This document shows positions 1,250 through 18,518 of a stretch of DNA of 19,320 nt, piece by piece. Within the stretch, counting starts at the first letter, position 1; each line of letters begins with the position of its first letter. The DNA comes from an uncultured archaeon. Its GTDB lineage: Archaea > Asgardarchaeota > Heimdallarchaeia > Heimdallarchaeales > Heimdallarchaeaceae. The translations under genes were made by a program, and so were the position numbers. The notes under the pieces were generated by a model. That model was not told the DNA's origin, did not search any database, and worked only from the letters and a program-made list of their open reading frames with translations. The stretch covers positions 1 through 19,320 of the forward strand of contig CAZJUB010000047.1 in assembly GCA_964549075.1 (NCBI GenBank), given 5' to 3'.

Positions 1250-4200
1250 TTACGCTAATTTGACATATCCGTCTCTAGGGGAGTAGATTTCTCCATTACT
1301 TCTAAGTTGATTTATAACTTTATCAACAAATTCCTCCTCTACATTTTGCTCTTTTGCTAACTCTTTGACTCTTTTAACTGATACAATATCAGAACTTCCT
1401 TGTCTGGATTCCTCTTTTATAATATCTATTATTGTTTGCATTTTTGAACGTGAAGATTTGGTTGTACCAGAAAGTAAATAATCAATATCTACACGACCTG
1501 TAATAGGATCTTTCCCAACTTGTTCGAGTGATGTTCTTAATAAATTAATAGCAGCTTCCACATGGTCAATTGTTACATCTTCTTTGAGAGCCATTCGAGC
1601 TTGTGCTTCAGATAAACGTATAATAGCTTCAAGGTATCTTGGAGTAATTGCTATCGCTGTTGTGTCATCTGATTCCTTTCTCAAGTTCAGATAAAATTTC
1701 TCTATTCTTTCCATAGCTTCATCAGTCAGAGAAGGTTCAACATGCTGTTTTGCATAACTTATATATTTTCTCAACAAATCAGTTGGAATGGTAGGTTCAG
1801 CTTCTTCTAAAACGTGACCTCTTCTTAGTTCTAAGATGTGTCTAGCCATTTTCTTATCTATATCATCATCTGGTTCATCTCGAATAACATAAATAAGATC
1901 AAATCTTGAAAGGATTGTTGCAGGAAGATTGATATTCTCTGAGGGAGGTCGAGTATCTTCATATCTACCAAAACGAGGATTAGCTGCAGCAATAACAGCA
2001 GCACGAGCGTTTAGTGTAGCTACAATACCAGCCTTAGCTATGCTAATGGTGTTATGAAGAACAAGTCCATGAGATATAAAATTCTCTGTTGGTTCTATAG
2101 TTACATCATAAACCCACTCTGCTGCAAATTCACCTTCATTCTTGATGATTTCAACTTTCTTTACTCTTAACCACTTGAAATTCTTAATTTCATCAATTTC
2201 TGCAAGGTTATCTTTTACAGAATTCAGCTGTTGACCAATCACTTTTCTATATTTTTGAAGAAGTTCTGTTCGATTTTGATTTTCATATTTCAATATTGTA
2301 GGAGTTGAATAACCTACGAGTTTAGATATTTTTGATTTTGAATATTGTATATACTCTCTAAGATTTTTTGCAGACTTGAAATTGTGAATGTTTTTTACTA
2401 GTAAATTGTATCGGTTTATCAGAGTAGAATAATATTTGTTAATAGTTTTAATTGTAATGCCATAGTTGTTATTAAGATGTTGATTGAAATAACCATCATT
2501 GCTTAATCCAAGTTTATGGAGAGAATCAATGACTAGATGTGCTACATCTGGTGGCAAAACATCATGTTTTCTACTTGATCTTCTATTCTTCATTAACAAT
2601 TTCTTTAATTTGGGAGAGGTATGAGTGTTTCCAATTATTAAATCAACAAATTTTTCGAGACTATCTCCCTCGATATATACTTTGTACCTAATTCTTACTT
2701 TCTCGTAGTCTTTTCCATATGTATATTTTTCACTCAAAATTTTAGTACTAATTCCTAGTGTTAACAGAAGATCTTGATAATCTTGGGCTAATCCTTTTGA
2801 TGCAGTTGAGTAGGAAATTGATGTACTTTCAATTGAGCTATTACCTCTAAACGCAGCTCTTAAAAACTCAATTCGGAGGTTTTCATTTATACAGAATACC
2901 TTCCTATCTATCCGTTTTTGATGACTTTTAAGCATAATTTGTGGGAAATTTTCGTGAAGATAATTGTAAATATCAATAGAAATTATCCTAAGGACTCTGT
3001 TTATATCTGTAGAGTCTATAGGTTCTAAATCAAATGAGTTCCTAATGCAATCCTTCATATCAGCTATGATATCTGAATCAGTATAGCTTAACCTTACTTC
3101 CATGGATGGACTTTCGTACGAATATCCTTCAGCAATATAATAACCTAGAAACTTAGCTAAATTGGGAGTAATTTCATCAGGTAAATTGACTTCTTTTCTT
3201 CCTTGTGAGAAGTCAGTTGTTAAGGTTGAGCTGTTCCTAAGATTCAATTTTCTTACTCCAGGAATAAACATTGTTGGAGTAACTTTGTTTGCATCTATTG
3301 TCTGAATTTTACCATTTTGTCTTACGTAAATTGGATGTTCTGGCGTAACAATTATGTCTCTCCCATTTGAATAGGTTATTTTAATAAAATGATCAGGTGC
3401 AGAATGTCGACTGACTCGATTGACATTAGTTTCAAAGATATTTTTGAAATTGGTAGTTAGTACGTTGTAATCCAATCCTTGAAGAGAAAGAATTTCACAA
3501 TCTTTTCCTAAGATCTTTCTTTCCTTGTATTTGTTGAAAAGGTCATCAACAAAAGGACCGATTTGGTTTTTCTGTCCATTTAGAAAAGTCATCTCAAAAC
3601 TTGGATGATAAGATTGTTGTTCCATCGCTTCGTGGATTGAGGATCTATCTACAGGATTCATCTTATCAAACTCGTCGATCATGCAATTATGGACTGGAAT
3701 AAAATTTGCAAAGAATGTATTATCATTTTCTATTTCTAAGTTATAAACTGCTTGTGGTTCTGTTTTGTTAATATTCTTGAGCTTAATAAAATGAACATCA
3801 TTTTCCAAAATTCGTTTTAGTAATTTGAACTCAGTGCATTGTTTAATATCTTCATTTTGTGAAAGATTATCTAAGGCAGTTCTAATATTACTCTTATTTA
3901 TACCAGAATCCTTTAACTGACTTTTTCTAATACTGTTAAGATAAAGTGTTGATTTTTCTCCATGAGGAATTTTAGACGATATTTTTTCAATGATTTTGTC
4001 AATCTTATATATTTTATCAGATTTATCTTGTCTCTTCATAATTTTATAATAAGCTTTTTTCTTTGGAGACATCAACTTATCAGGTGTAAATCTTCTAATG
4101 TTAGAAACACCTGTTATAGAAATCTTATAGATGACATATTTTCCCTCATTCACAACACCTCCGCCTTTATGCTTTATTTTATTTAATTGTGCAGCAATTC

Positions 4201-7200
4201 CAATTTTCCTTAAAAGCTTTTGATAAAAAACCGCTGTTTCTTTATTTCCAGCAACTATATCAATGATCCCTCCATATTTTCGATTCGAAATAGATCCATC
4301 TCCATTTATAATTCCAGACAGAAATGCGTGTATGATATTTACTGGTGCACTTAATATACTTGGTATAATACAAGGAACTTTTGATTTGTTAATGTTTGGA
4401 ATACCTAGACTTTGTAGATATGAGTGTACTTGTTTGTTATTAAAGTATAACATAGTAATCATATTTCTTTCATCTACATAGTTCCCTGTTTGTATTCCAA
4501 AAACCTGTTTAACTAAGAATTTATATCTATCTAATAGTTCATTAGATTTTGAGTAAAAGGATACTTTATATTTCTCTTTTGAAAGATTTCCATCAGAAAC
4601 TAACAAACCTAAAAACTCAGCTAATTCCTCTGTTAGTGAATAATCCCCCCCCTCATTTAGATTGGAGTTTAAGAAAGGATAGTTTCTAAAATCAATAATT
4701 ATATCTCCTATTCTTAACTCTTCAACTTTTTTCCATACAATACCATTGTCCCATGAAGGTAATGGATGTTCTTTAGTGACTTTGAGAAAATCTCCAGTTG
4801 AGAATTCTAATTCAAAAACTTCATTACTAAATCTCTTAGAAGTACTAACTATTCTATTTGAACTTAAGGTAAGAGTATTTGAATCAAATGATATTACTTT
4901 ATCATCTATTCCTCCTTGAGCAATTTTCTCGATAGTTACAATTTTACCTGAAGAAAGAAGTATCTCTGTATCTGAAGCTAAACAAACCCCTCGATCTGCC
5001 AAGACTAATGCTCCTGCCTCTAAGCCAAATTCACCTGTATCAGGGTCACGAATGACAGCTGCGGTATTATGAGTAACAAAACCATTTATTATGAAGTTGT
5101 GTGTTTCTGGAATTGTTAAATCATATACAAACTCATCTGTACTTTCATATTCTTCTACTTCAGTGATTTCATCCCACAAGATGTCAGAGTTTACCAATGC
5201 TTGGAGGAGTTCATATTTTTTTAGAAATTCTTCATGTTTCTGGGTTGTTTGTTTAATTGTTTGTTCTAATTCTTTCATAATTTCTTCAGGAACCATGCTA
5301 CAATCTAATTTTAATAATTTTACAAAAACTCTGATAGGGATAGTAACTTTACTCTTCCTCAGAAAGTAGTCTTGGATATTGTGGTTTTTAAGTTCTGCTT
5401 GTTTTTCAATATGATATCTGGTATTTTTCAAGAGTAAGGTTTTGTAAAATTGAGAACGAATATGGTACTGAATGGTGATTCTGTGCCTTAACCAATCAGG
5501 TTCAAGAATATTCAATATTTTTCTTAATTGTTTTTGTGATATTGTTTTTCTTATACTCGATTGAGCAAATGCTCCTTGATAACCAGCTAAATCCTTACTA
5601 GAATAGAAATAAAATTCTTTTAGTTGTTTAACTATAAAACTAGCTTCTGGAATATTATCTAGATTAAAGTGACTTGATTTGTTTAATGAACAAAGTTGAT
5701 TCAACTTCTCTCGTTTAGATGGATGTCTAAAACCAATTTGCTTTTTGAAAATCTGAAAATCATTAAAATTACTTAGAGTAATCTCAAACTTCTTTTGTTT
5801 TCCAATTATTTGAGTTCCATCGATTTTTGTTGCTGTTCTTAGCTCTCTTTCTCTTCGGAAAGTTACAACATGAAGGATTGATAAAGCATTTTGTACAAAA
5901 TCTGCAAGTTCTGAGCTTGTGGTGGAAAAACCTATGTGAGATGAGCTTTCATCTCTTATTGTAATCCATCCATCAGCATCAAATAAACCTTGAAGGATGC
6001 TTGTAAGATATTTTGTTTCATAAAATAGAATATCCGAAATTGGAGAAATTCTAGATGATTTAGGAGTGGTGCAAAGACCGAAATAAGAGAAAATATGATA
6101 GAGTAGTTTTGAACATATGCAGAATTCAGCTGGCCTTTTAGTGGTTTCTGGAGTCTTTGTAATAGTTATTCCTAGTGATTTAAAAAAATTCTCAAAAATG
6201 TTAAGCAATTCTTTATTTTTGTTTGAGAAACCGATTGTTATACCACCATATCCATCGGTACTTTGATCTTTTGATATTCGTCCATCACCAATAAGTAATC
6301 CTAAGATATAGAACCACTCAGAATCAAGATTTTTTGGTAAGGATATTGTCTGCCCTCGTTTTATCTCTACCTCGATTGTTTCTGGAAGTAATATGGAAAC
6401 TTCTTTATCTAAGATTAAACAAAGCTTCTGGAAGTTTGAAATAGAAATGTTTCCTCGGATATTCTTGTTTTTCCATGTATGGATTGTTGATTCAGAAACA
6501 TTTAGTAACTTTGCCAATTTTCTTTGAGTTCCATCTTTATCAGTTTTGCTGAATTCTTCAATGACTTGCTGAACAATTGGCGAAACATTTTTCAAAGTAA
6601 TTTCTTCTTGATAGGTTTCCAATAAGTTAAGCATCGAAGGGATAGGTTTCTTATTATAAATAGGTAAATGTTTCACAGTCGCTAATCTTTCTCCTTCTTT
6701 TAGTAAGCTTGCACTTTTCCATACTAAACCATCTTTATTATTGATAGTCAGCAAACTTGTTTGTGGAGTGATTTTGATTTCTTTTCCTGTTTTGGTTCTT
6801 ATTTTCCTCATTCTTTTTGGGCTTTTTATTTTCCAGAATTTAGATATAGGTTGCTTCTCAAGTTGAAGATTTTTTGAATGAATCGCTTGATTTTTCATAT
6901 TTGTATTCTTGATATAGTCCATATGATCATTGTATTGAAGAATCTCACCAGTCTCAAATTCTCGTTCTACAATATCGGCTATTTTAACGATATTATCGTG
7001 CAAAAAGACTTTGCTATCACCTGACACGCATAAACCAGCTGCAGTACTTGCTTTTCCTGAGGTTAAAAGACCTCTTGGTGCCAATCTTTTTACATACTGT
7101 AGCATTTGTGATTTTGCTGTGCCAGGATCGCCAATTAAAAGTAAATTTGATTCTCCTCTCTGTTTCATCCCGTCTGGAGTAACTCTAGTTATCCCACCAA

Positions 7201-8152
7201 ACAGCACTGTAGCTAGTGCTTCTTTAATCGTTTCCATTCCATAAATTGATGGTGCTAGCGATCTAATGATTTTTCTATGGATATTGATATCTGTTGAGAG
7301 ATCAAGTATTTTTTGTTCTGTTTCTGGATCTATATCTATTTCTTCAAATTCTTTCTCGCTTGAAGAAACATAGTTTACATCCAACCAAGGATCAAACGTA
7401 GCTATTTTACCTGTTTGTTTTCCTTTTACTTTCATCCTTAAGATTCCAGAAACAATTGCTCTATCACCTGCTCTAATTGTATCAACAAGATCACCTACTA
7501 ATCTAGCAGGTACAGACCGAGGTATTTGTCCTGGAGGTAGAGTTTCTGGTTTTTCTTGAACTGTAACCGTTTGAAGATCAGTATAGGTAGATTCTTCAGT
7601 TAAAAGATTAAAAGGACCATTTTTTCCACAGTTAGGATTCACACATCTTGTAGGTTCTGTATAATATCCTCCTTCTTGTTTAAGATCTGGTTGTATTTCT
7701 CCACACCTAACACACTGGAATTTACCTTCAATAAGGAGTGGCTTTACAATACTCTGACGTATGATAATTCCTTCTAAAGATATTAGCTTACCAAGATGAC
7801 CTGATCTTAACTTTCGAAGATCAACTTGATTTGGAGTGTTGCCTATACGTACTTTAAATTCAAGCTTTTCTTCTTTAGCATTTTCCACATACATTGGGTC
7901 TTCTATTCTAAGAATTTCAACAAGTGCTTCATCAGCTGCTTTGAAAGTGTTTTCAGGTTCCTCCTCTAGACTCTTGGCAATCATAGGATCAAAACGTAAA
8001 AAATCATCATGGTTAACAAACAAGGAAGTTAATCCTTCAAGGGACATTTTTTGGACTTGTTCAACATAAATAAATCTGCCATTTTCGTCTTGATAAGCTT
8101 GAAGAAACTCTTTAAACCTTCCAGTCGGAGTTGATTGCATATCGATAACCAT
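1250..8152 (-). CDS. mcm: Replicative helicase MCM precursor containing three inteins; spliced product 691 aa
   Basis: Zn finger CVRC...CVNPNC, QEKPETLPPGQIPRS, APSIYG, Walker A GDPGTAKSQ, GKASTAAGL/TAAV, LEAGALVLADRGV, Walker B IDEFDKM, HEAMEQQ/TISIAKAG, AAANP, Arg finger LSRFD, ITPRYLE, C-terminal winged helix GEIYSPRDG. 2300-655-433-521=691 aa, typical of archaeal MCM. The start may be the second ATG (8140). Confidence 0.98.
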   Translation of the reverse strand: MVIDMQSTPTGRFKEFLQAYQDENGRFIYVEQVQKMSLEGLTSLFVNHDDFLRFDPMIAKSLEEEPENTFKAADEALVEILRIEDPMYVENAKEEKLEFKVRIGNTPNQVDLRKLRSGHLGKLISLEGIIIRQSIVKPLLIEGKFQCVRCGEIQPDLKQEGGYYTEPTRCVNPNCGKNGPFNLLTEESTYTDLQTVTVQEKPETLPPGQIPRSVPARLVGDLVDTIRAGDRAIVSGILRMKVKGKQTGKIATFDPWLDVNYVSSSEKEFEEIDIDPETEQKILDLSTDINIHRKIIRSLAPSIYGMETIKEALATVLFGGITRVTPDGMKQRGESNLLLIGDPGTAKSQMLQYVKRLAPRGLLTSGKASTAAGLCVSGDSKVFLHDNIVKIADIVEREFETGEILQYNDHMDYIKNTNMKNQAIHSKNLQLEKQPISKFWKIKSPKRMRKIRTKTGKEIKITPQTSLLTINNKDGLVWKSASLLKEGERLATVKHLPIYNKKPIPSMLNLLETYQEEITLKNVSPIVQQVIEEFSKTDKDGTQRKLAKLLNVSESTIHTWKNKNIRGNISISNFQKLCLILDKEVSILLPETIEVEIKRGQTISLPKNLDSEWFYILGLLIGDGRISKDQSTDGYGGITIGFSNKNKELLNIFENFFKSLGITITKTPETTKRPAEFCICSKLLYHIFSYFGLCTTPKSSRISPISDILFYETKYLTSILQGLFDADGWITIRDESSSHIGFSTTSSELADFVQNALSILHVVTFRRERELRTATKIDGTQIIGKQKKFEITLSNFNDFQIFKKQIGFRHPSKREKLNQLCSLNKSSHFNLDNIPEASFIVKQLKEFYFYSSKDLAGYQGAFAQSSIRKTISQKQLRKILNILEPDWLRHRITIQYHIRSQFYKTLLLKNTRYHIEKQAELKNHNIQDYFLRKSKVTIPIRVFVKLLKLDCSMVPEEIMKELEQTIKQTTQKHEEFLKKYELLQALVNSDILWDEITEVEEYESTDEFVYDLTIPETHNFIINGFVTHNTAAVIRDPDTGEFGLEAGALVLADRGVCLASDTEILLSSGKIVTIEKIAQGGIDDKVISFDSNTLTLSSNRIVSTSKRFSNEVFELEFSTGDFLKVTKEHPLPSWDNGIVWKKVEELRIGDIIIDFRNYPFLNSNLNEGGDYSLTEELAEFLGLLVSDGNLSKEKYKVSFYSKSNELLDRYKFLVKQVFGIQTGNYVDERNMITMLYFNNKQVHSYLQSLGIPNINKSKVPCIIPSILSAPVNIIHAFLSGIINGDGSISNRKYGGIIDIVAGNKETAVFYQKLLRKIGIAAQLNKIKHKGGGVVNEGKYVIYKISITGVSNIRRFTPDKLMSPKKKAYYKIMKRQDKSDKIYKIDKIIEKISSKIPHGEKSTLYLNSIRKSQLKDSGINKSNIRTALDNLSQNEDIKQCTEFKLLKRILENDVHFIKLKNINKTEPQAVYNLEIENDNTFFANFIPVHNCMIDEFDKMNPVDRSSIHEAMEQQSYHPSFEMTFLNGQKNQIGPFVDDLFNKYKERKILGKDCEILSLQGLDYNVLTTNFKNIFETNVNRVSRHSAPDHFIKITYSNGRDIIVTPEHPIYVRQNGKIQTIDANKVTPTMFIPGVRKLNLRNSSTLTTDFSQGRKEVNLPDEITPNLAKFLGYYIAEGYSYESPSMEVRLSYTDSDIIADMKDCIRNSFDLEPIDSTDINRVLRIISIDIYNYLHENFPQIMLKSHQKRIDRKVFCINENLRIEFLRAAFRGNSSIESTSISYSTASKGLAQDYQDLLLTLGISTKILSEKYTYGKDYEKVRIRYKVYIEGDSLEKFVDLIIGNTHTSPKLKKLLMKNRRSSRKHDVLPPDVAHLVIDSLHKLGLSNDGYFNQHLNNNYGITIKTINKYYSTLINRYNLLVKNIHNFKSAKNLREYIQYSKSKISKLVGYSTPTILKYENQNRTELLQKYRKVIGQQLNSVKDNLAEIDEIKNFKWLRVKKVEIIKNEGEFAAEWVYDVTIEPTENFISHGLVLHNTISIAKAGIVATLNARAAVIAAANPRFGRYEDTRPPSENINLPATILSRFDLIYVIRDEPDDDIDKKMARHILELRRGHVLEEAEPTIPTDLLRKYISYAKQHVEPSLTDEAMERIEKFYLNLRKESDDTTAIAITPRYLEAIIRLSEAQARMALKEDVTIDHVEAAINLLRTSLEQVGKDPITGRVDIDYLLSGTTKSSRSKMQTIIDIIKEESRQGSSDIVSVKRVKELAKEQNVEEEFVDKVINQLRSNGEIYSPRDGYVKLA
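2051..3613 (-). mobile_element. MCM intein 3 (521 aa, residues 1514-2034; MEQQ|TIS site, CDC21-c type), Ser1 nucleophile, endonuclease possibly degenerate
   Basis: Begins SYHPSFE, block B VTPEHPI, block C FLGYYIAEG, block E FLRAAFRGNS, ends WVYDVTIEPTENFISHGLVLHN followed by +1 Thr. Confidence 0.95.
3686..4984 (-). mobile_element. MCM intein 2 (433 aa, residues 1057-1489; ADRGV|CMIDE site just before Walker B) with LAGLIDADG homing endonuclease
   Basis: Begins CLASDT, block B VTKEHPL, LAGLIDADG blocks FLGLLVSDG and FLSGIINGDG, ends VYNLEIENDNTFFANFIPVHN followed by +1 Cys. Confidence 0.96.
5066..7030 (-). mobile_element. MCM intein 1 (655 aa, residues 375-1029; AAGL|TAA site, CDC21-b type) with LAGLIDADG homing endonuclease
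   Basis: Begins CVSGDS and ends FVYDLTIPETHNFIINGFVTHN followed by +1 Thr. LAGLIDADG blocks YILGLLIGDG and ILQGLFDADG. Removing it restores GKASTAAGLTAAV. Confidence 0.96.
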
Positions 8153-8321
8153 AAATCCACTACCTAATCACTATAACTTCTCATTTTTAATCAAAGTAAT
8201 AAGTCTTACTTACTATTAGTCTTAGATATTTTTTCATTAGATATAAGGATTTATTAGTATTTAAAGCACAAAATTAATTTAAGCAGAAATTTCTCATAAA
8301 TTTATAGTATTGGTGAAATAA
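8153..8321. promoter_or_regulatory. Divergent AT-rich promoter region (mcm / membrane hydrolase) with a GGTGA ribosome-binding motif before ATG 8322
   Basis: 169-bp very AT-rich gap between head-to-head genes, with TATA-like TTTAAA/TTTATA hexamers and ggtga just upstream of the ATG at 8322. Individual boxes cannot be assigned confidently. Confidence 0.45.
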
Positions 8322-9671
8322 ATGACTTACACTACAACTCATTTAGCATTACAGAGTTTAATCGTTTGGTTATTATTATCTAAACAGAATAAGAGTTACT
8401 ATAAAGACCATAGGTGGGAATATATTGTTATCAGTTTATTTGCTATGTTTCCCGATATAGACTTGTTATTTGGAGCACATCGAACTTTTACGCATAGTCT
8501 GATAATTCCTTCGTTTATACTTCTCAGTATGTTAGTAATTGAAAAAGTGCATAAAGAGGTAAGTCCAATTGAATCTCCTACAAGAAAAATGGTACGATTT
8601 GTAAAACTTGCTTCAATAATGTGGATAATGCATATCTTTCTAGATTTAAGTTGGGGGCCAATTATGCTTTTTTGGCCATTAGATTCTAACTTATATGACC
8701 TTTCTATTTACTTAAGATTTGAAAACACTCCATGGCTTTTCTTTCCTTTAACTTTTGTTGGTTTAATACCAGATTGGTCTATCTATTCATTATCTGAAGG
8801 ACAAAACATCTATTTCATCAACATGACCCAACAACAACGTCAAGCTATATATGGTGATTACATTAATTTATACATTGCATCATTTACCCTTCATGTTACA
8901 ATTTTTGTTGTGTGGCTTATTGTAATCTTCTTTCCAGCTTTCAAGAGAAAGAAGAGGAAACAGGATAATAAACAAGTGAAATTTGTTATATTTACCAAAG
9001 AGTTCTGGAAACGGTTAAAACGTCATATGACACTACTAGGACTTTTTTTGATTTTTATAGGAGTGCTGTTGGGACCTAGTATTGGGAATAATAAAGAAAT
9101 GGATCATACTGTATCTTCAAAATACAAGAGCACGCAAACTGATTTTGATCCTACATTGGGTGTTTCTATAGAAAGTAAAACTCATGCTAGTACCACTGTT
9201 GTGTTCTCTAGTGAGCAAAACCTAGTTGATTATAATGTCTCACTACTGTTGACAGATAATGATACCTTCATTAATTTCTTTACAGACTTTGGAAATTTAA
9301 CCAATGTTTATTATAATGGTAATATTACGTTTAATAACCTCTTAACAGGATATTTCTCACTTGTTACACAAGTAAAACTAACAAGTCTATATGAAGAACG
9401 ACTAATTAATGAGAATGTTATTAACGGTACTACAATTATTTTAAATGCTACAGAAGAAGCTACTTCTTTTTATCTCATTACTCTTGTTGACGAATGGAAT
9501 CTAACTGAATCCTATATTTATGATACATCTCTCAGTATAAAGTATAATATTAACAGGGATGTTGCTCAAATTGAAGGTGGAATACTAGACGGTTTTGGAT
9601 TAGTTTTGATTCTGGTTGATCAACTGTTAGCTCTAAAAGAAAAACGAATGAAAATTACTCCACCAACCTAG
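8322..9671 (+). CDS. Membrane-bound metal-dependent hydrolase (YdjM/DUF457-like) with extended C-terminal extracytoplasmic domain
   Basis: N-terminal TH, FPDID...HRTFTHS and HIFLD motifs typical of the YdjM/LexA-binding membrane hydrolase family; several hydrophobic helices; a ~160-aa soluble segment bounded by TM helices. Confidence 0.8.
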   Translation: MTYTTTHLALQSLIVWLLLSKQNKSYYKDHRWEYIVISLFAMFPDIDLLFGAHRTFTHSLIIPSFILLSMLVIEKVHKEVSPIESPTRKMVRFVKLASIMWIMHIFLDLSWGPIMLFWPLDSNLYDLSIYLRFENTPWLFFPLTFVGLIPDWSIYSLSEGQNIYFINMTQQQRQAIYGDYINLYIASFTLHVTIFVVWLIVIFFPAFKRKKRKQDNKQVKFVIFTKEFWKRLKRHMTLLGLFLIFIGVLLGPSIGNNKEMDHTVSSKYKSTQTDFDPTLGVSIESKTHASTTVVFSSEQNLVDYNVSLLLTDNDTFINFFTDFGNLTNVYYNGNITFNNLLTGYFSLVTQVKLTSLYEERLINENVINGTTIILNATEEATSFYLITLVDEWNLTESYIYDTSLSIKYNINRDVAQIEGGILDGFGLVLILVDQLLALKEKRMKITPPT

Positions 9672-10611
9672 AAGTAAGTTCAACTAAATCTGAGTTTTGA
9701 TGTAATTCTTCAAAAGAAACATTTGATAATGAAACTACTTCATCTACAAAAGATACTCTTCGAAATGTTTTAACATAGATGATTCTCAAATCAGGAATCT
9801 TCTGGATTACAGGAAGGGGATTCTTTCCCGTTGTCCTCTCTAAATCGCTTATAAGATAAATGATCTTTTCTCTTGAAGAACTGAATTTTATTTGATCTAT
9901 TGCAAGATTTAACGCTTCTTCTAGGTTGGTTTTTCCACCACTTTCGATGTTTAAAATTTGTTCTACTAATACATCATGATTAATACTTTCTGTCATACCT
10001 TTGAGAAGATAAGCTTTAGAATCAAAATCAATGACAGCAAAATTATCTTTTTTTACTGACAAAGAAAGAACAGAAGCCATCAAAACAATTTGGTGTATAA
10101 GCTTCAACACGCTCATACTGCGATCGATACAAATAACAATACTTTTCTTGCGTTTAAAAGGTTCTTTAGCTACAATACTCTCATAATCAGGAGAGAGTTT
10201 ACCAAGACTTAGCATCTTTTCTATTGTCATTTCAGCTTCCCATGAGTTACCTGGTTCATAATTAATATACCTAGAAACTGAAGAAGAAATACCTCTTTGA
10301 AAAATCTGTTTGGCTTTTTCAGTAATGAAAGGAATCAATTTATCAAGCATTCTCTTTCTGATTTCAAAATTTAGATGTTTTTTTGTACGAGAATAAAGTT
10401 GTATTAATTCTTCACTACTGAGATTTTCTAACATTTGTTCAGAAAGTTCGATTTTGTTGAGGACTTGAGCTACTACTATAGGATAGTTTGTTGCAATTAA
10501 TCTTAATCCTTCCAGATTTGTTTGCTCAGCAGCACGTTTAGCTAATTCTAAGATCCGAGACATATCCTCAACTTGTCTTCCTAGCTCTAGGTTAATCTCG
10601 TTAAGAAGCAT
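9655..10611 (-). CDS. von Willebrand factor A (vWA) domain protein, MoxR partner; reading frame is open upstream to 10707
   Basis: MIDAS motif VICIDRSMS (DxSxS), GGKTNL (Thr) and LISD (Asp); helical N-terminal region; lies directly downstream of the MoxR-type ATPase. The start is uncertain (see frameshift finding). Confidence 0.85.
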   Translation of the reverse strand: MLLNEINLELGRQVEDMSRILELAKRAAEQTNLEGLRLIATNYPIVVAQVLNKIELSEQMLENLSSEELIQLYSRTKKHLNFEIRKRMLDKLIPFITEKAKQIFQRGISSSVSRYINYEPGNSWEAEMTIEKMLSLGKLSPDYESIVAKEPFKRKKSIVICIDRSMSVLKLIHQIVLMASVLSLSVKKDNFAVIDFDSKAYLLKGMTESINHDVLVEQILNIESGGKTNLEEALNLAIDQIKFSSSREKIIYLISDLERTTGKNPLPVIQKIPDLRIIYVKTFRRVSFVDEVVSLSNVSFEELHQNSDLVELTSRLVE

Positions 10612-10679
10612 TCTTTCTGCATGCTTTGTATCCAGAGTTAGAAAAGGTTCATCCCCTAAAATTGAAGAAATAAGGTCGC

Positions 10680-11573
10680 CTAATTCTCTTTTTTTCTCAA
10701 AACTCTCTTATCATCATATTTTGAAAGAACCTTCGAAACTATTTCTATAATGATTTCATCTTCTGTCTTTCGACTAGTTGTTTTGCATCTTACTTTCCTA
10801 GAATGAACTGCTAGTGAATTAGCGATTAACGATTCTTCTTCAAGTACGTCCGTTCCATATACCAGACTTACTAATTGAATCGCTCCTCTTACAGTTGATC
10901 CATATTCTAGCTCTGGATGATTCAGAGTTGCCTCAACTATCTCACATGAGATTTTGTTAAGAAGTTCATCTTCAGAATTAGTTCTAAGTTTAACAATCTG
11001 CATCATTTCTTCTAATGATTGGTGAGTAACATTAATCCACACGCATCTATCATAGAATGCTTTTGGTAAAGGATTGGTTGCAACTGTATCATGTGGATTG
11101 TATGTAAAAACTCCAATAAACCCTTTTTTAGCCTTAATCTCACCTAATTGAGGTATAGTAATTAGATTTTCATCTAAAGCTGTTAAAACAGCATTAATTG
11201 TCTCTGATGGTGCTCTGTTTACCTCATTATAGAAGAAAATTCCACCTTCTTCCATTGCTTGAGTTAATGGACCTGGTATGAAAGTTTCTCTTGAGAATCC
11301 TTTTTCAATAACTAATGGAGGATCATACCATCCTTTCAGCTTAATCGAAGTTAAACTGTCATCACCATCAACTCGAATAAACAATCGATTAAGACTACTA
11401 GCTAAAGCTTTTGCCATCTCAGTTTTACCTGTACCTACTGGTCCTTCTATAATGATAGGTAATCCTTTTGCAACTGCTTTTATCATTAGTTTTAATTCTT
11501 TTCTTCTCCCTATTATTAATCTAGACATTTGATTAAAAGCTTCTATTGATTCGGTGTCTTTTTCCAACATCAA
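10680..11573 (-). CDS. MoxR-family AAA+ ATPase (AAA_5-like)
   Basis: IIGR N-terminus, Walker A GPVGTGKT, FIPGPLTQAM, Walker B variant FFYNEVNRA, sensor TYNP, Arg finger YDRC, sensor-2 STVRGAI. The likely start is ATG 11570 (11573 is TTG). Confidence 0.9.
   Translation of the reverse strand: MMLEKDTESIEAFNQMSRLIIGRRKELKLMIKAVAKGLPIIIEGPVGTGKTEMAKALASSLNRLFIRVDGDDSLTSIKLKGWYDPPLVIEKGFSRETFIPGPLTQAMEEGGIFFYNEVNRAPSETINAVLTALDENLITIPQLGEIKAKKGFIGVFTYNPHDTVATNPLPKAFYDRCVWINVTHQSLEEMMQIVKLRTNSEDELLNKISCEIVEATLNHPELEYGSTVRGAIQLVSLVYGTDVLEEESLIANSLAVHSRKVRCKTTSRKTEDEIIIEIVSKVLSKYDDKRVLRKKEN
10689..10695 (-). other. Candidate -1 frameshift/slippage site A_AAA_AAA linking the MoxR and vWA frames
   Basis: Minus strand reads TTG AGA AAA AAA GAG AAT TAG in the MoxR frame. 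The -1 frame, GAG AAA AAA AGA GAA TTA GGC GAC..., has no stop before vWA ATG 10611. Confidence 0.6.
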
Positions 11574-11707
11574 AGATAGAAAAGATAGAGAAATTAAAAC
11601 TGTTATTGTATATGATAAAGAAAAGATGAGAGATTTTTATCTAATTCTGTGGAAACTTATTTCCAAAGTTAAAAACAAACAAAATTTTAAAAATCCAGAG
11701 TCACAAT

Positions 11708-12274
11708 TTAGACCTTTAAAGCACCTCGAAATCCCCTAGCACTGTAGTAAGATGGTGCACTATTGTGATATACGAAGACTTTGCCATAACGATAATCAGC
11801 AAAGAGTGCTCCTCCAAGTTTTCTGATATCATCAGGTGTTTTCAACCAGCTTGATGTCTTTGTATCGAACTCTCCAAGTTTTTGCAACTCTCGATATTGC
11901 TCTTCTGTTAAAAGCTCAATTCCCATAGTTGTTGCCATGTTAATAGCACTATTTTCTGGTTTATGTGCTTTCCTTGACTCTAGTGCTTCATGGTCGTAAC
12001 AAACATTTCTACGACCTTCAGGGCTTTCTTCTGAACAATCATAAAAGATGTATTCATCTGTTTCTTTATTATAACCAACAACATCAGGTTCACCACCAGT
12101 TCTTTCCATTTCATTAAGTGACCAGAATTTTTCAAGATTAACTTCCAGTTTTGCTCTTATTTTACCCCATTCAAGGTCTTTGTGGCGATTCATATTTTTC
12201 TCAAAACGAATTTTTAAAACATTAAGTTGTTTTTCACGCTGTTCTGCTGACATCTCTTCTTTTCCCTTGGACAT
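11708..12274 (-). CDS. DUF4256 family protein
   Basis: Recognised from memory of family motifs: RFEKNMNRH, LNEMERTGGEPDVV, DCSEESPEGRR, GIELLTEEQYRELQ, FDTKTSSW, IRKLGGALF, VFVYHN..SYYSARGFRG. Confidence 0.88.
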   Translation of the reverse strand: MSKGKEEMSAEQREKQLNVLKIRFEKNMNRHKDLEWGKIRAKLEVNLEKFWSLNEMERTGGEPDVVGYNKETDEYIFYDCSEESPEGRRNVCYDHEALESRKAHKPENSAINMATTMGIELLTEEQYRELQKLGEFDTKTSSWLKTPDDIRKLGGALFADYRYGKVFVYHNSAPSYYSARGFRGALKV

Positions 12275-12337
12275 GAATAAAATAATATAAATCTGTTTTA
12301 TATACTCTAATGTTTTACAAAAAATGGGAAGAAAGAG

Positions 12338-13723
12338 TTATTTTATTTTATGGAAACAATTCCTTTCTACAAATAAATCTATCTTGTCATTTTCTTTAAT
12401 TTCAAAATGTACAGGTAACGTATTTCCAAAATTGTAGACATAGAATTTATAATCCTCCATCTTTGGATCTTTTGGAATAAGCACATACCTTGTAGTTATC
12501 TCTCCAAGGGTTGTTTCACCAACAAGTATCCCATTATCAACGAATATCTTGATTTTATTTAATCCTTTATAGTTTGTATACTCTCCAGATAATTTTTCCA
12601 TCCTTGCTTGAATTCCAAAGAATGGTATTTCCTTCTCTGGATTTTTACCTATAAGAGTGCTTAAAATTGTTTGACTAATTATGATACCCATTCCATTTCC
12701 AACATTAGCTTCAGTCACCATCCCCATGTTAAGTTCAGGTATAATAGAAAATTGAGCGCTAGATAAAGCTGTAGACCCACCATGTGATACGATTTTTTGT
12801 CCAAAAAAGTCTTCAGAAATAGCTAGACCAAAACCATACCCACTTCGTCCTAAGAAATTTACTGGAGTTTCAATCTGAATAGAGAACATTTCTTGAAGTG
12901 ATTCTTTACTAACAATCCTCTTTCCATCAAATTCTCCATTATTCAGCAACATAATCAGAAAATTGCTCATCTCATTTACTGAGCTAAGTAAACCTCCAGC
13001 AGCATAGATAAAATGATCAAAAGGATGTTTCTTGACTACAGGTGTATCTTTTTCGATTAAATATGCTGTCATCTTATCCTCATCTTGGGAGAATTTCTCT
13101 TCGGAAAAGGTAGATCTTTCCATCTTTAATGGTTTTAATATAAATTCTTCGATGTAATCTTCAAATTTCATAGAACTTACAGCTTCAACAATCTCTCCTA
13201 GCATTGTAAACCCTGAATTGAAGTAGAAATACCTCTTTCCAGGTTCATCTGTAATTTCATTTTGAGCACCATTTATAAAAGTAAAAAAATCGTCTTTACT
13301 AGCGAACGGAATCCAAGTTTCTTCTATAGGTGCATGTCTCGTTATCAACACTGTAGCTGCACCTAGGTTTGGTAAACCTGATGAATGTGACATTAAATGT
13401 CGAATTTTAATTGGATGATTTTTTAGACCTATCTTGAGGGGAATATATTTACTAACAGGATCATCTATCGATAATTTACCTTGTTCTGCAAGTTGCATTA
13501 TAGCTAAGCAAGTAAATACTTTTGTGCAAGATCCTATTCCAAAAATTGTATCTGAAGTAGTGGGAAGATTTTCTGCTAAGTTTTTACTTCCAAAACCCTT
13601 TGAATAAATAACTTCTTTATCTTTAATAATTGCAAGGCTTAATCCAGGGATCTTACCTTTCTGCATAAATGTTACAATTTTCTGTTCAATCTCTTCAAAC
13701 GACTTATCCAACATATCTATCAA
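12338..13723 (-). CDS. Serine hydrolase, beta-lactamase class C-like / Pab87 (CubicO) peptidase
   Basis: IPGLSLAI, SxxK (GSCTK), LMSHSSG, YxN (YFYFNSG), AAGGLLSS, HGG triad. The ~95-aa C-terminal beta domain ending FVERNCFHK resembles the Pab87 oligomerisation domain. Start is TTG 13723 or ATG 13714. Confidence 0.88.
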   Translation of the reverse strand: MIDMLDKSFEEIEQKIVTFMQKGKIPGLSLAIIKDKEVIYSKGFGSKNLAENLPTTSDTIFGIGSCTKVFTCLAIMQLAEQGKLSIDDPVSKYIPLKIGLKNHPIKIRHLMSHSSGLPNLGAATVLITRHAPIEETWIPFASKDDFFTFINGAQNEITDEPGKRYFYFNSGFTMLGEIVEAVSSMKFEDYIEEFILKPLKMERSTFSEEKFSQDEDKMTAYLIEKDTPVVKKHPFDHFIYAAGGLLSSVNEMSNFLIMLLNNGEFDGKRIVSKESLQEMFSIQIETPVNFLGRSGYGFGLAISEDFFGQKIVSHGGSTALSSAQFSIIPELNMGMVTEANVGNGMGIIISQTILSTLIGKNPEKEIPFFGIQARMEKLSGEYTNYKGLNKIKIFVDNGILVGETTLGEITTRYVLIPKDPKMEDYKFYVYNFGNTLPVHFEIKENDKIDLFVERNCFHKIK

Positions 13724-13768
13724 CTTATTATCTTTGAATCTAATTCATCGATAAACTTTTAAGACTTT

Positions 13769-13923
13769 GGTGAGCAACATGTTTTAGAGTACTGATGTTA
13801 AAGAATGAGCGACAGAATAAAGTCAATTGTTATACACTTTTAGTGGATACTGTCGCTTTTGGTCCAATTAGCTAAGTATAAACAGAAAAAACACCAATGC
13901 TCAAAACACATTCTGTTCTCATC
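13769..13923. repeat. Long imperfect inverted repeat with nested internal stems (candidate structured RNA or MITE-like element)
   Basis: GGTGAGCAACATGTTTTAGAGTACTGATGTT (13769-13799) pairs imperfectly with AACACCAATGCTCAAAACA..TGTTCTCATC (13890-13923). A perfect inner stem is formed by AGCGACAG (13808-13815) and CTGTCGCT (13850-13857). Confidence 0.5.
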
Positions 13924-14043
13924 CTTTTTCTGTAAAAAACTGATTGAATCGCTTGTTTACAAATTCTCTCTATCCTATTGGAGATTTTCGATTTTGAACC
14001 AGGAAAGACATGTAAACCAACTAATTATAGGAGTTAGAAACAA

Positions 14044-15276
14044 ATGTTAACACAAACAAGTGTCCAGGAACTAACTAAAAACCAAATTATTCACAAGAAT
14101 AAGTGGTTGTTCATCTTAACTAAATTGGACCTGACATCAATGGTTGTTCCTGTAATAGTTAAGATTTGGGAATCTGCAAATCTAAGTTTCAGCAATATGC
14201 TATTCCTTCAAGGAATCTTCGCCTTATCTGTAGTTATCTTCGAAATTCCGAGTGGGGCAATCTCCGATGCTTTTAAACGTAAATATGTTTTAGCATCTGG
14301 ATATCTGTTCCTTGCTATTGGTTCGTTAACATATTCACTAGGGCATACTTTCATAATGTTTGCAATAAGCGAAACACTCTTCGGAATAGGACTAGCAACT
14401 ATATCTGGATCAGATTCAAGTTTAGTATATGATACTCTAGCAGAATTTAAAGAAGAAAAACAATTTAAATCAATACTTGGAAAAGCTTCAACTCTATCCT
14501 TTATTGCTGCAATGATTACTTTGATGGTTGCTGGTGTGATAGGAGAATATTCACTCAGATTACCTTTGTATATTCTAACAGGTACCTTTGTAGTCAAAGT
14601 GATTCTATGTCTTCAAATGGTTGAAATTGAAAGAATCAAAGCTAAAAATGCTGGAAGTGCAACCAAACAGGCATTTCAAACTCTATTCAAATCAAAATAC
14701 TTAATTGCAGTATTATTCGCATTCCTAGCTTATTCGGTTGCTCAACGTGTGACGTTTTGGGCATATCAGCCAAAATTGTTTGAATATGGAATTACTCCTT
14801 TACATATCGGTTTCATATTCGCAGGTATGAATCTTGTTGCTGCAGGATCAAGTTATTTGTTTGGTAAAATAAATGAAAAACATGAAGATTTGATGTTACT
14901 TGGCTTTATGATCATTGAGATTGTTAACACTATTGTGCTTTGGAAAATTGACAACCTCGGAATTTTATCAACCATATATCTAGTCCAGATCGCTAGAGGA
15001 GGTAGAGCTCCTATAGTGGGAACCATGATTCAGAGAAAAGCAACATCTGAACAAAGAGCGACCTTAATATCTATATATTCATCACTTGGAAACTTACTTT
15101 ACTTTATAGCCAGTGTTTTCTATAACTTATACACTGTTTCACTTGACAACTCATTAATTTCTGTGCTAGTGCTTTCTCTTGTGTTTCTAGTCATCTATTC
15201 TACCTTGATCAGAAGTAATAGAAATGGAATTAAAAAAATAAAAGAAGAGAAGATTAAGGAACTTATTCCTTCTTAA
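14044..15276 (+). CDS. MFS transporter
   Basis: About 12 hydrophobic segments; FEIPSGAISDAFKRK (MFS motif A variant), SGSDSSLVYD, QRATLIS; AGGAG ~10 nt upstream of the ATG. Confidence 0.9.
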   Translation: MLTQTSVQELTKNQIIHKNKWLFILTKLDLTSMVVPVIVKIWESANLSFSNMLFLQGIFALSVVIFEIPSGAISDAFKRKYVLASGYLFLAIGSLTYSLGHTFIMFAISETLFGIGLATISGSDSSLVYDTLAEFKEEKQFKSILGKASTLSFIAAMITLMVAGVIGEYSLRLPLYILTGTFVVKVILCLQMVEIERIKAKNAGSATKQAFQTLFKSKYLIAVLFAFLAYSVAQRVTFWAYQPKLFEYGITPLHIGFIFAGMNLVAAGSSYLFGKINEKHEDLMLLGFMIIEIVNTIVLWKIDNLGILSTIYLVQIARGGRAPIVGTMIQRKATSEQRATLISIYSSLGNLLYFIASVFYNLYTVSLDNSLISVLVLSLVFLVIYSTLIRSNRNGIKKIKEEKIKELIPS

Positions 15277-16720
15277 TAGGAATTATTCCTTCTTCTTTTA
15301 ATATCAATTTTGCAGGTTTTACAAGTAGAATAATAACCAAACCAACTAGCATGATAGCTCCGACAACTCCAACAGCAAATGCATATACTTGATTAAGAGC
15401 TAAGCCAACTGTTGTAAGAGCGATTATAGCTCCCCAAATAATCGGTCCTATCGAAGATGATACTTTTCCAGAAAGTTTACTAAAACCAAAATATTCACCA
15501 AATTTCTCTTTAGGAGCTAGTTCAAGAACCATGTATCTTTGTGCCACCCATGTTCCACCTAAAGCTGGACCAGCAAGTAATCCCATAATTATCACCATTA
15601 CGAATGGGAATGTCCATCCTCCTGTCCCACCTAACATTGTTGGAACTTCAATTGGAGACCACACTAGAGTAGCTATTATAGATATACCAAGAGCCACAAA
15701 CCATAATGAACAAACTAGAATGAATGTCGCTTTTGCACCTTTTTTATCTGCAAACATTCCGACTGGGTAAGTAAAAAGAACAGCTGAAACTGTAGCTATA
15801 ATGATGAAGTAATTTGCGAATGTATAATCCATCCCCATTCCATCAGTTACTATTAATATCATTTTTATTATAACTACATTCGCTACTTCAACTACAAGAA
15901 AATATCCAATGATAAATTTGAACATCTCTTTGTGTCCTCTTATATCCTTGAAAGTTTCCCCTAGCTGTTTAAAGGAAGTTTTTATTGCCATTTTAGCTGG
16001 AGGTGCTTTTTCTGATCTTTTTCTCTCCTTTACAAATATGAACGGTATAGCAAAAACCAGGAAAATCGCCATAGCAATTGCAAAAGTTTCCCATCTACCT
16101 AAATAACCATATTTCACAGGAGGGGGATTAAGGATAATATTCCCTAAATCAGTAGTTGTCGATGAGACGCTCCTGGGAGATCCCCAAAAGCTTTGTAGGA
16201 CCAGCATTGCAGCTAAACCTAAAATTGTTCCTAAATAGCCAAAAGCAACACCAAAACCACCTACCTTACCCGCATGTCTTGGAGCCGCAATAAAAGGTAA
16301 CATCGCATCATAGAACCCAAGACTCCATTGATAAGCCATATTAGCTATTACATAAAGCAATAAAACCAACCACATGCTATGCCATATACCTAATAAACTT
16401 GCGAAAATCAAAATGACGCCTGTAAGTACGATAACAAAAGGTTTTCTTCTTCCAGCAACATCACTTAATGCACCAACAATAGGCATACCTATAGCTATGA
16501 TTATTTGCATTACCATAACAACAGTATCATAAATAAATTCAGATTGAGCATAGTTTAATCCATTTTCTAATTGTCCAATAATCAGAATATATTGGTTGAT
16601 TATTAACGATACAATCACCATCGAGTAAACAGTATTTGCTAAATCATAAAGTGACCAAGCAAAAACATTCCAGAGTGAAGTTTTAGTTTCTACATGAACT
16701 TCCGCCAATTCTTCAGACAT
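15263..16720 (-). CDS. MFS transporter, UMF1/Atg22-like family
   Basis: WSLYDLANTVYS, GALSDVAGRRK, FYDAMLP, GVAFGYLG, GMFADKKGAK, EKFGEYFGF..LSGK; about 12 TM helices. Confidence 0.88.
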   Translation of the reverse strand: MSEELAEVHVETKTSLWNVFAWSLYDLANTVYSMVIVSLIINQYILIIGQLENGLNYAQSEFIYDTVVMVMQIIIAIGMPIVGALSDVAGRRKPFVIVLTGVILIFASLLGIWHSMWLVLLLYVIANMAYQWSLGFYDAMLPFIAAPRHAGKVGGFGVAFGYLGTILGLAAMLVLQSFWGSPRSVSSTTTDLGNIILNPPPVKYGYLGRWETFAIAMAIFLVFAIPFIFVKERKRSEKAPPAKMAIKTSFKQLGETFKDIRGHKEMFKFIIGYFLVVEVANVVIIKMILIVTDGMGMDYTFANYFIIIATVSAVLFTYPVGMFADKKGAKATFILVCSLWFVALGISIIATLVWSPIEVPTMLGGTGGWTFPFVMVIIMGLLAGPALGGTWVAQRYMVLELAPKEKFGEYFGFSKLSGKVSSSIGPIIWGAIIALTTVGLALNQVYAFAVGVVGAIMLVGLVIILLVKPAKLILKEEGIIPIKKE

Positions 16721-16781
16721 GAAAACCTTATAAAACTAGCCATTTAAAAAATTATTCCAAATTTCATTTGCAAAAGAAGTA

Positions 16782-17834
16782 TTAAAACTTCCAAAATTCT
16801 CTATGGTATTTCTTAACTTGTTTTAACATACTTGTAGCGTGATCTGATAGCTTAATTGTGGAGATTTTATTCAAAATATCAGGTTTGTTACCAAGAAGTC
16901 CTAAAATAAATTTCTTACTAACATCTTTTAGTTGGTCGATTTTGTAACCTCCCTCTAAGGTACAAGAAATTTTTCCCTCACAAAGATTTTCTGCAATTTC
17001 ATTAAGTAGATATCCAGCAGCTGCAAAAGCAGAAGTTCCTAAATTAAAAACACCTACAGGGTCGCCTTCTAGCGTATCAAATCCTACAGAAACAAGTATG
17101 AATTCAGGTTGGTATTGTCTTACTATATCAAGAGAAAAAATAAGCGCATGAAGCCAATCAGTTGTATTTGTACCAGGTAATAAAGGTATATTTACGTTAT
17201 AACCTCTTCCTTCAACAAGACCAATTTCATTGGGAAATCCTGTACCAGGATAGGTATACATTGGATGTCCGTGGATTGAGACATATAATACATCTTTTCG
17301 ATGACTGAAAATATGTGAAGTACCATTCCCAAAATGCTGATCAATATCGATAATTGCTATTTTATTATACCCCTTGTACTGAATAAGCCAATCAGCTGCA
17401 ACAGCTATATTATTAAAATAACAAAATCCTCCTGCTGAATTACTTTCTGCATGATGTCCAGGAGGACGAACAAGTGCAAAGCTTCTTTTTGTCTTACCTT
17501 CATCAACAAGTTGTGCTGCCTGTTTTGTAGCACCCGCAGCATATTTTGCAATAAAAAATGTATGTTCATTCAAAGTAGTATCAACTGATATCATCCCTCC
17601 TCCAGCTTTGGAAATAGCTCTTATTTTTTCTATATGATCACTGACGTGAACAGAAAGCAGAAGTTCTTCATCAATCAACTCAGGCATAAGAATAGATAGG
17701 CTATATATTTTCTCTTCTTGAAGCTCTTTTATTGCTTTCATAATCTCATCTAGACGTTGTGGAGATTCTGGATGTAATTTGTCCATTACATGTTTTTTGA
17801 AAATTTCAGAATAAATGAAAGCAATGTCGCTCAT
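16782..17834 (-). CDS. Histone deacetylase superfamily protein (Zn-dependent, AcuC/APAH/class II-like)
   Basis: HPESPQRL, RPPGHHA, GFCYFNN, DIDQHFGNGT, VSIH, YPGTG, NVNIPL, SVGFD..GDP, LEGGY. The catalytic His pair, Zn ligands and Tyr are all present. Confidence 0.95.
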   Translation of the reverse strand: MSDIAFIYSEIFKKHVMDKLHPESPQRLDEIMKAIKELQEEKIYSLSILMPELIDEELLLSVHVSDHIEKIRAISKAGGGMISVDTTLNEHTFFIAKYAAGATKQAAQLVDEGKTKRSFALVRPPGHHAESNSAGGFCYFNNIAVAADWLIQYKGYNKIAIIDIDQHFGNGTSHIFSHRKDVLYVSIHGHPMYTYPGTGFPNEIGLVEGRGYNVNIPLLPGTNTTDWLHALIFSLDIVRQYQPEFILVSVGFDTLEGDPVGVFNLGTSAFAAAGYLLNEIAENLCEGKISCTLEGGYKIDQLKDVSKKFILGLLGNKPDILNKISTIKLSDHATSMLKQVKKYHREFWKF

Positions 17835-17947
17835 TCATATTTACATAAGAAACACTTACAATTAATCTTTTTGCTAATATTTTATTCAGATGTCTGTCTC
17901 CACATATTTTATATAATATTAATTTTAGCAAGAGCCATTAATTTAAT

Positions 17948-18493: not shown

Positions 18494-18518
18494 TTTTTGA
18501 GAAAATTTTTATGGACTT

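Follow-up and report, generated by a model that had tools for sequence, protein, structure and literature searches.

The subject of this analysis is a pair of adjacent minus-strand open reading frames (ORFs) in the genome of an uncultured archaeon of the Heimdallarchaeaceae, annotated as one gene for a MoxR-class AAA+ ATPase and one gene for a protein with a von Willebrand factor A (vWA) domain. They lie in a stretch of 19,320 nucleotides (nt; assembly GCA_964549075.1, contig CAZJUB010000047.1, positions 1 to 19,320), which was analysed as a whole and is called the window below. Comparison with homologous loci makes it highly probable that the two annotated genes are a single gene expressed by programmed recoding, of either the ribosomal or the transcriptional kind, at a run of seven adenines close to the ATPase stop codon. 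The route is probably a programmed −1 ribosomal frameshift, a proposal that we hold with more reserve. A first-pass annotation, made from the letters of the window, had suggested recoding, and the comparative checks on the heptamer, the −1 relation, the linker, the start codons and fused relatives all came out in its favour.

A slippery heptamer at the ATPase–vWA junction

All elements of the locus are encoded on the minus strand. In the 0 frame, the ORF 10680..11573 encodes the short product, an AAA_5/AAA_3 ATPase (MoxR-class, NorQ-like) of 297 codons including its TTG start, or 296 from the next ATG, and the 3′ end of the ORF reads GTT TTG AGA AAA AAA GAG AAT TAG. The heptamer A_AAA_AAA (10689..10695) consists of exactly seven A in X_XXY_YYZ phase in the ATPase 0 frame, and the 0-frame stop TAG (10680..10682) follows two codons past it, its G being the first base of a downstream hairpin. 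The vWA ORF sits in the −1 frame relative to the ATPase ORF. This frame has a TAA at 10708-10710, is open from 10707, reads ESFEKKRELGDLISSILGDEPFLTLDTKHAERMLLNEIN... and continues stop-free into the annotated vWA ORF, which extends from its ATG (10609-10611) to 9655. The 68-nt gap between the annotated genes (10612-10679) contains no ATG, GTG or TTG in the −1 frame, and reading across it gives ...KKRELGDLISSILGDEPFLTLDTKHAERMLLNEIN...; the linker that would be read in this frame after a slip (RELGDLISSILGDEPFLTLDTKHAER) spans 10612..10689 and is annotated as intergenic. On direct reading, the first-pass annotation had placed the ORFs, the A7 run, the stop and the −1 opening correctly, and it was right about both the phasing of the heptamer two codons ahead of the stop and the lack of in-frame start codons in the gap. 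The predicted products have 297 amino acids (aa; ATPase) and 639 aa (ATPase-linker-vWA). The vWA part as annotated (9655..10611) comprises a helical domain followed by a vWA fold, as assigned with Pfam, AlphaFold2 and Foldseek, and carries the metal-ion-dependent adhesion site (MIDAS) motif DxSxS (GAT CGC AGT ATG AGC) at 10111..10125. Each of the MIDAS residues D195, S197, S199, T260 and D288 is the same in all 18 aligned sequences, which indicates purifying selection on the vWA part.

The arrangement recurs in related archaea. A search of 61 related genomes yielded 30 loci; in 29 of them a phased heptamer precedes the ATPase stop by 0-15 nt and the −1 frame holds the vWA ORF. Named public contigs yielded 31 loci, and the same −1 relation with a phased heptamer was present in all 28 that include the upstream ATPase and could be analysed. 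After removal of 22 duplicates between the two sets, 35 unique loci remained, all from Heimdall-group Asgard archaea. The phase of the heptamer is identical and the −1 relation is kept in every one of these 35 loci with ATPase–vWA architecture, so that the conservation among homologues to which the first-pass annotation had looked is indeed present. The run is exactly A7 in 33 loci; the other two have A_AAA_AAU (L030/L057) and A10 (L055), and an A8 or A9 in-frame variant occurs in none of the 35. The 0-frame stop lies 0-15 nt past the heptamer in the homologues, mostly 3 or 6 nt. The site is distributed over at least 35 species of Heimdall-group Asgard archaea, which represent two families, with five or more genera between them, and further named lineages; the closest homologues are on contigs of Candidatus Heimdallarchaeota, Hodarchaeota, Hermodarchaeota and Promethearchaeota. 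Between two clades of loci the identity falls to 44-48% for the ATPase and 30-33% for the vWA part, and the slip site is kept in both.

Codon choice at the run is also restricted. The codon ahead of the run varies in the amino acid that it encodes (CGA, AGA, UCA, CCA or UUA) and always ends in A. Ten columns of the alignment hold an invariant lysine in the 26 clade-1 sequences counted; all-AAA columns occur only at the two heptamer codons, and the other eight columns use AAG in 1-11 of the 26 sequences. The heptamer is thus under synonymous constraint.

The first-pass annotation had taken the 68-nt gap for a coding linker, and this receives support from conservation at the protein level and from coding periodicity in the −1 frame. 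The linker aligns as a protein with the pattern KKR.xGD...GDEPF, and its entropy in the −1 frame at codon positions 1, 2 and 3 is 0.73, 0.51 and 0.96, respectively (24 sequences, two with linker indels having been left out). The linker is thus in all likelihood translated in this frame.

Downstream RNA structure

A candidate stimulatory hairpin, following the clade-1 consensus structure, occupies 10646..10680 on the minus strand and begins 8 nt past the heptamer. In the window it has a basal stem GGC/ACC with one mismatch, a 5+2 internal loop GA/GAUGA, an upper stem CCUUAU/UUAGGG and a 10-nt loop. The clade-1 consensus, obtained with RNAalifold from 26 sequences, has a basal stem GGU/ACC and GA opposite (G/A)AUGA, followed by a 6-bp upper stem that is capped by a loop of about 10 nt. 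Both-sided changes are found at six of its nine pairs, and its covariation score is 0.323, compared with 0.220 in column shuffles (0 of 500 reach the observed score) and with no more than 0.141 after sliding of the partners. Pairing is kept despite changed residues on both arms in L021/L022 (CUCUAUCA/UGAUAGAG), L023 (CUUAG/CUGAG) and L105 (CUUUACUG/CAGUAAAG), and its preservation through non-synonymous double changes suggests that it is the RNA, and not the peptide, that is under selection. Relative to 45-nt windows of the same gene, the clade-1 hairpins have a mean stability z of −2.29, and 18 of the 26 sequences fall within the 5% tail.

Clade 2 has a different hairpin, GC-rich and with a 7-bp stem (GGCGGGA/UCCCGCC), 6-7 nt past the heptamer in eight of nine loci (mean z −3.23), and L104 has a third version (GGGGGGUC/GACCCCCC, z −2.22). 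In L055 (CAZALJ010000120.1, ~2351-2400), alone among the clade-2 loci, the 5′ arm of the hairpin is missing and the run is lengthened to A10. A layout of heptamer, spacer and hairpin is therefore seen at the level of the family, with a spacing of 8 nt in clade 1 and 6-7 nt in clade 2. The two hairpins drawn in the first-pass annotation fared less well. The first, AAGCAT-N9-ATGCTT, exists but recurs only in the two closest relatives; the second, TTAGGGGA-N6-TTTTCTAA, exists as sequence but is not the consensus pairing, the conserved hairpin being that at 10646-10680. An Rfam search of 10500-10800 gave no meaningful match, the best being SNORD22 on the opposite strand (E = 0.83).

Kink-turns share a consensus of a C stem, a 3-nt bulge, tandem sheared G·A/A·G pairs and an NC stem, forming a 5+2 internal loop. 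The 5+2 loop of the clade-1 hairpin may fit this consensus. All 26 sequences have GA at columns 22-23 and again at columns 49-50, the latter within the five-nucleotide 3′ loop strand (G/A)AUGA (columns 46-50), with both stems flanking them, and the same 5+2 layout accompanies a different upper stem in L105. The GA dinucleotides are at the same time codon positions 1-2 of Asp or Glu. That the clade-1 stimulator is a kink-turn bound by L7Ae, an archaeal ribosomal protein, with a protein-dependent frameshift and a ratio of plain to MIDAS-tethered subunits tuned through L7Ae availability, is a speculative and on balance doubtful proposal. Were it so, about one tail per hexamer, for example, may give a midasin-like architecture from two products of one gene, and the locus would be the first natural case of recoding stimulated by a kink-turn and L7Ae, in the archaea most closely related to eukaryotes.

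Fused relatives, paralogs and the probable route of recoding

In-frame fused homologues, whose existence the first-pass annotation had raised, were found. Five database proteins of 606-622 aa are in-frame ATPase-linker-vWA fusions with 47-51% identity over the ATPase part, and a further fusion occurs in genome G031, which belongs to the same order but another family and carries an orthologue without the heptamer. At this locus (L062; G031:C74, 1895-4653, minus strand) a stand-alone 277-aa ATPase gene without the heptamer is separated by 8 nt from a downstream gene for a 638-aa in-frame ATPase–vWA fusion, whose junction reads CCG AAA AAA CGC. Two genes would here supply both of the products that other genomes would obtain from one recoded gene, and this ChlI-plus-ChlD arrangement argues that the short and long forms are both needed. 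Relatives of the family on metagenome contigs of 30-58% GC content (L098-L103 and L107; 45-51% ATPase identity) have A10 at the same junction, even in contigs of 47-58% GC, where chance is a very unlikely source at such composition. The ATPase and vWA parts are in frame in L100 and in the −1 relation in L098, L099, L101, L103, L102 and L107; a single base beside the run separates L100 from L098, L099 and L101 (about 60% identical to the same query).

Two more paralog families combine an AAA_5 ATPase and a vWA protein. A second paralog in the genome from which the window derives (G000, C14 ~28906-30881, plus strand; L097) has an ATPase 41% identical to that of the window, ending GAT TTT TTA TAG, with a phased U_UUU_UUA directly before the stop and a vWA ORF in the −1 frame that is open across the junction. 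The 20 loci related to it (L065-L084) comprise 15 with U_UUU_UUN and a stop, one with G_GGU_UUU, two without a clean heptamer and two with the vWA ORF in the +1 frame. A third paralog family (L085-L091; G049:C32, G057:C116, G047:C52, G042:C293, G038:C131, G044:C156 and G043:C585) has runs of A9-A11 where the ATPase and vWA parts join. The two parts are in frame in G049 and G057, with a −1-frame stop three to four codons past the run (a dnaX-like reverse configuration), and in the −1 relation in G047, G042, G038, G044 and G043.

In the mechanism that we consider most probable for the locus in the window, most ribosomes would translate the AAA_5 ATPase ORF and terminate at the TAG at 10680-10682. 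The free ATPase made in this way, about 297 aa long, would be expected to assemble into hexamers as other MoxR-class ATPases do. Some of the ribosomes would slip back by one base on A_AAA_AAA (10689-10695), where both Lys-tRNAs can re-pair perfectly, the slip being promoted by the RNA hairpin that starts 8 nt downstream. Shifted ribosomes would pass through a disordered 26-residue linker into the helical and MIDAS-bearing vWA domains and complete a ChlD-like protein of about 639 aa consisting of ATPase, tether and adaptor. Rings in which short and long subunits are mixed would then bear a vWA adaptor on a covalent tether, as NorQ6 is served by NorD and ChlI by ChlD, and the ratio of the two products may tune the hexamer. 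We infer the ribosomal nature of the shift, its efficiency and the assembly of the rings. Several features favour the ribosomal route: the run is fixed at seven and strictly phased; one locus uses A_AAA_AAU, the fucA1 heptamer; the hairpin occurs 6-8 nt downstream in three different sequence versions; and its pairing is kept through changes in both arms, with L055, in which the 5′ arm is lost, having the longer A10.

Recoding might instead take place mainly at the RNA level, with the archaeal RNA polymerase stuttering on A7/T7 and one A being added to some transcripts, which would encode the fusion in frame and give a protein identical to the −1 ribosomal product. We consider this rather unlikely, although it is the alternative to be taken most seriously. 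Related families and higher-GC relatives carry A9-A11 with close relatives in frame or −1 (G049/G057 versus G047, G042, G038, G044 and G043; L100 versus L098, L099 and L101), and such long runs of variable length would favour transcriptional slippage for the related families. In frameshifted chlD (fs-chlD) the efficiency rises with the length of the run, from 10% for A7 to 40% for A9 and 63% for A11 in the available text of one report (PMC3711429), and L055 combines A10 with the absence of a hairpin. In the family of the window, however, the run is exactly seven in 33 of 35 loci and one locus has only A6 followed by U, and the hairpin is conserved at a spacing typical of ribosomal stimulators; polymerase stuttering needs neither a hairpin nor a fixed run. 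The use of U_UUU_UUN directly before the stop in a paralog family also speaks against the transcriptional route.

A more conventional explanation, that of two ordinary, separately translated genes in which translation of the vWA protein begins at ATG 10611, possibly coupled to ATPase termination, and the A7 run is just Lys-Lys, is improbable. MoxR-class ATPases and vWA partners are usually separate, as exemplified by NorQ/NorD (PMC13036017, in the text available), and an ATG at or before the Met position of the window is present in the window and in 22 other loci. A7 runs are also common in G000, where the GC content is 32.3% and 1979 A7/T7 runs occur, so that a lone A7 is not unusual. Start codons of the vWA ORF, the independence of which the first-pass annotation had left as a point to be checked, are nevertheless not conserved: between the opening of the −1 frame and the Met column of the window, 10 of the 35 loci have no ATG, GTG or TTG in that frame, and 12 have no ATG. 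The ATG of the window lies 77 nt past the heptamer. In an AlphaFold2 model of the −1-frame ORF (predicted local distance difference test, pLDDT, 82.9), residues 1-25 are predicted to be disordered (pLDDT < 50) and the first predicted helix (27-42) spans Met33, the annotated start. The lack of a conserved vWA start and the position of this Met inside a predicted helix suggest that the annotated start is a lineage-specific internal methionine and not a conserved initiation site. Separate translation would, moreover, leave unaccounted for the absence of stops from the −1 frame of the gap at all of the loci, the coding periodicity and conserved residues found there, the synonymous constraint on the heptamer, the −1 relation throughout the 35 loci and the in-frame fused relatives.

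A genome-wide scan of G000 shows how uncommon the complete configuration is. A phased X_XXY_YYZ within 21 nt of the stop is present in 187 of 2470 ORFs of at least 150 codons, and a −1 frame that stays open over 150 codons or more accompanies it in only seven of these 187. The seven comprise one N-run artefact, three apparently ordinary neighbours, one EcfA–EcfT pair, and the studied locus and its paralog. C21, C31 and C8 were rejected as recoding sites since a start codon stands right behind the heptamer, as in ordinary adjacent genes. L094 (G000 C18 ~10900-13210, minus strand) is a 520-codon double ABC ATPase (EcfA-like) that ends G_GGA_AAT TAA and is followed in the −1 frame by a CbiQ/EcfT-like ORF with no ATG, GTG or TTG for at least 150 nt past the heptamer; it could be another recoding candidate, or an unusual start codon could be used.

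Finally, an error of sequencing or assembly in the homopolymer (a true A8 and a plain fusion), conceivable in an error-prone type of sequence from a metagenome-assembled genome, or a decaying pseudogene, has a negligible likelihood, as the A7 rather than A8 that the first-pass annotation had read is covered without an indel in contigs from four other runs (X4, X5, X6 and X7; salt-marsh metagenomes), A7 recurs in 33 independently assembled species, and both halves of the gene are under purifying selection.

Several points weigh against programmed ribosomal frameshifting and are collected here. The hairpin of the window is the weakest of its family (−4.0 kcal/mol, z +0.16), and the fold of the whole region is no better than that of shuffles (z −0.49). 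The conserved GA/GAUGA loop nucleotides coincide with codon positions 1-2 of conserved Asp/Glu residues, and peptide constraint could explain their conservation. A possible vWA start codon is present in 25 of the 35 loci, the window included, and independent initiation of a vWA-only protein may occur too. The A9-A11 relatives, which are sometimes in frame, look like transcriptional slippage sites, and slippage may act on A7 too. All of the genomes are metagenome assemblies and related loci are not independent; the check on runs X4-X7 is at the level of contigs, where minority A8 alleles are invisible; and the sequencing runs found for the locus are all of DNA, the case for recoding being one of sequence comparison.

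Protein identity, neighbourhood and known systems

The first-pass label of MoxR stands as to class, and the ATPase is more exactly an AAA_5/NorQ-like member of the MoxR class. Its ORF matches the Pfam families AAA_5 (E = 7.5e-21, 75 bits, cut-off 22) and AAA_3 (E = 5.8e-12, 46.1 bits, cut-off 27), and its best single-domain match among solved structures is NorQ (9qh4_A, 48.8 bits, E = 6.4e-12). The vWA ORF matches VWA_2 (E = 1.2e-10, 42.4 bits) and also VWA and VWA_CoxE. A Foldseek search with the vWA part placed NorD first (9qhe_G, 1e-7) and the MIDAS domains of MDN1/Rea1 third and fourth; in searches of the PDB by sequence, the single vWA sequence gave nothing useful and a profile gave only generic vWA matches (best 8s05_A, 9.6e-4). 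Three more specific assignments were rejected. A special kinship with midasin is not indicated, as the whole-chain E value of 1.7e-35 adds up the matches to six tandem AAA domains, none of which scores above 36.5 bits by itself, less than NorQ. Membership of the magnesium chelatases fails on PF01078 (17 bits, cut-off 20.3) and on TIGR02031 BchD-ChlD (22.7 bits, cut-off 499.55); a search for ChlH/CobN (PF02514), which matched 5 of 14 reference genomes as a control, gave no match in G000 (89.7% complete). Equivalence to GvpN, CbbQ or NorQ is not supported by TIGR02640 GvpN (68 bits, cut-off 266.8), and the matching genomic context is absent among the neighbours.

The neighbours of the locus are YdjM-like, DUF4256, beta-lactamase-like and MCM genes. 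Downstream, the convergent gene codes for a YdjM-like protein in clade 1 and for a membrane Peptidase_M48 in clade 2, and upstream the genes are different as well; no conserved neighbourhood that could serve as a clue to the substrate was found, the neighbours differing between the clades. Upstream of the ATPase gene, 11708-13723 of the window (minus strand) encodes, besides a DUF4256 protein (E = 1.4e-89), a protein that has a beta-lactamase fold and a Pab87 octamerisation domain; these genes are not kept beside the locus elsewhere, an MFS transporter or a MarR/coiled-coil protein being found instead. A 2300-codon ORF at 1250-8152 (minus strand) is an intein-interrupted MCM helicase, in which Pfam identifies Intein_splicing in three stretches and LAGLIDADG_3 in five, with MCM N, OB, P-loop, lid and WH segments around them. 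The window also encodes a CDP-archaeol synthase.

No description of this MoxR/vWA case was found in the full-text literature searched, subscription-only papers being outside its reach. The frameshift device has so far been described for chelatase genes alone and would here belong to another ATPase family, in Asgard archaea. The conserved layout of heptamer, spacer and hairpin would offer a well-defined cellular model for frameshifting on Asgard ribosomes. Annotations would also need correction, as the vWA ‘genes’ would carry false start codons and the linker would be coding. The locus suggests that tethering of an adaptor to an AAA+ ring through recoding may be a general design. Two more paralog families in these genomes have other types of slippery junction.

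In the tau/gamma system of Escherichia coli dnaX, an A-rich X_XXY_YYZ heptamer and a downstream hairpin produce two AAA+ forms in a set ratio. The studied locus shares with dnaX the heptamer, a candidate hairpin and two (here predicted) AAA+ protein forms from one gene, but the shift truncates the dnaX protein and would extend the product here; it is the in-frame A10/A11 paralogs that would have a dnaX-like configuration. Midasin (Rea1/MDN1) resembles the predicted long product in having AAA_5 domains and a C-terminal MIDAS domain on a long tether, and differs in its six tandem AAA domains, the best single one of which is a poorer match than NorQ to the studied ATPase. NorQ/NorD and CbbQ/CbbO, which include the best matches in sequence (NorQ) and in fold (NorD), likewise pair an AAA_5 MoxR-class hexamer with a MIDAS adaptor, and a finger of the vWA domain of NorD enters the pore of the NorQ6 ring according to the available text of PMC13036017. 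In these systems, however, the adaptor has its own gene, whereas here it would be fused by recoding, and no nitric oxide reductase (NOR) or Rubisco context is present.

Among archaeal genes, fucA1 of Saccharolobus solfataricus is the only −1 frameshift reported in the Archaea according to the accessible text of a 2021 review, in which the chelatase frameshift of methanogens is merely suggested (PMC8211752). Like the studied locus it is a cellular gene with a putative stem-loop, and its heptamer is A_AAA_AAU, as in L030/L057. It was described from a single species, with only the shifted product functional (PMC8211752, same text), whereas the site studied here occurs in at least 35 species and both of its products are plausible subunits.

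The closest parallel is fs-chlD, for which the accessible portions of three reports (PMC3711429; PMC5009743; PMC9227772) describe an A_AAA_AAR site, A7-A11 runs, efficiencies of 10-63% in E. coli reporters, fused homologues, and hosts that include Methanocaldococcus, Methanococcus and several bacteria. Both loci have a −1 shift, predicted in our case, on A_AAA_AAR/poly-A at the border between the AAA+ and linker-vWA parts, annotation as two genes, in-frame fused homologues and the potential for a downstream stem, and in both standard decoding would give a small AAA+ subunit and the shift an AAA+–vWA subunit. They differ in that the studied locus belongs to another protein family, in a genome without a detected CobN/ChlH, that its hosts are Heimdall-group Asgard archaea instead of Methanococcales or bacteria, and that its run is fixed at A7 and accompanied by a kink-turn-like hairpin. 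The one-gene, two-subunits logic of ChlI/ChlD would thereby be extended to the NorQ/CbbQ-like branch of the MoxR ATPases.

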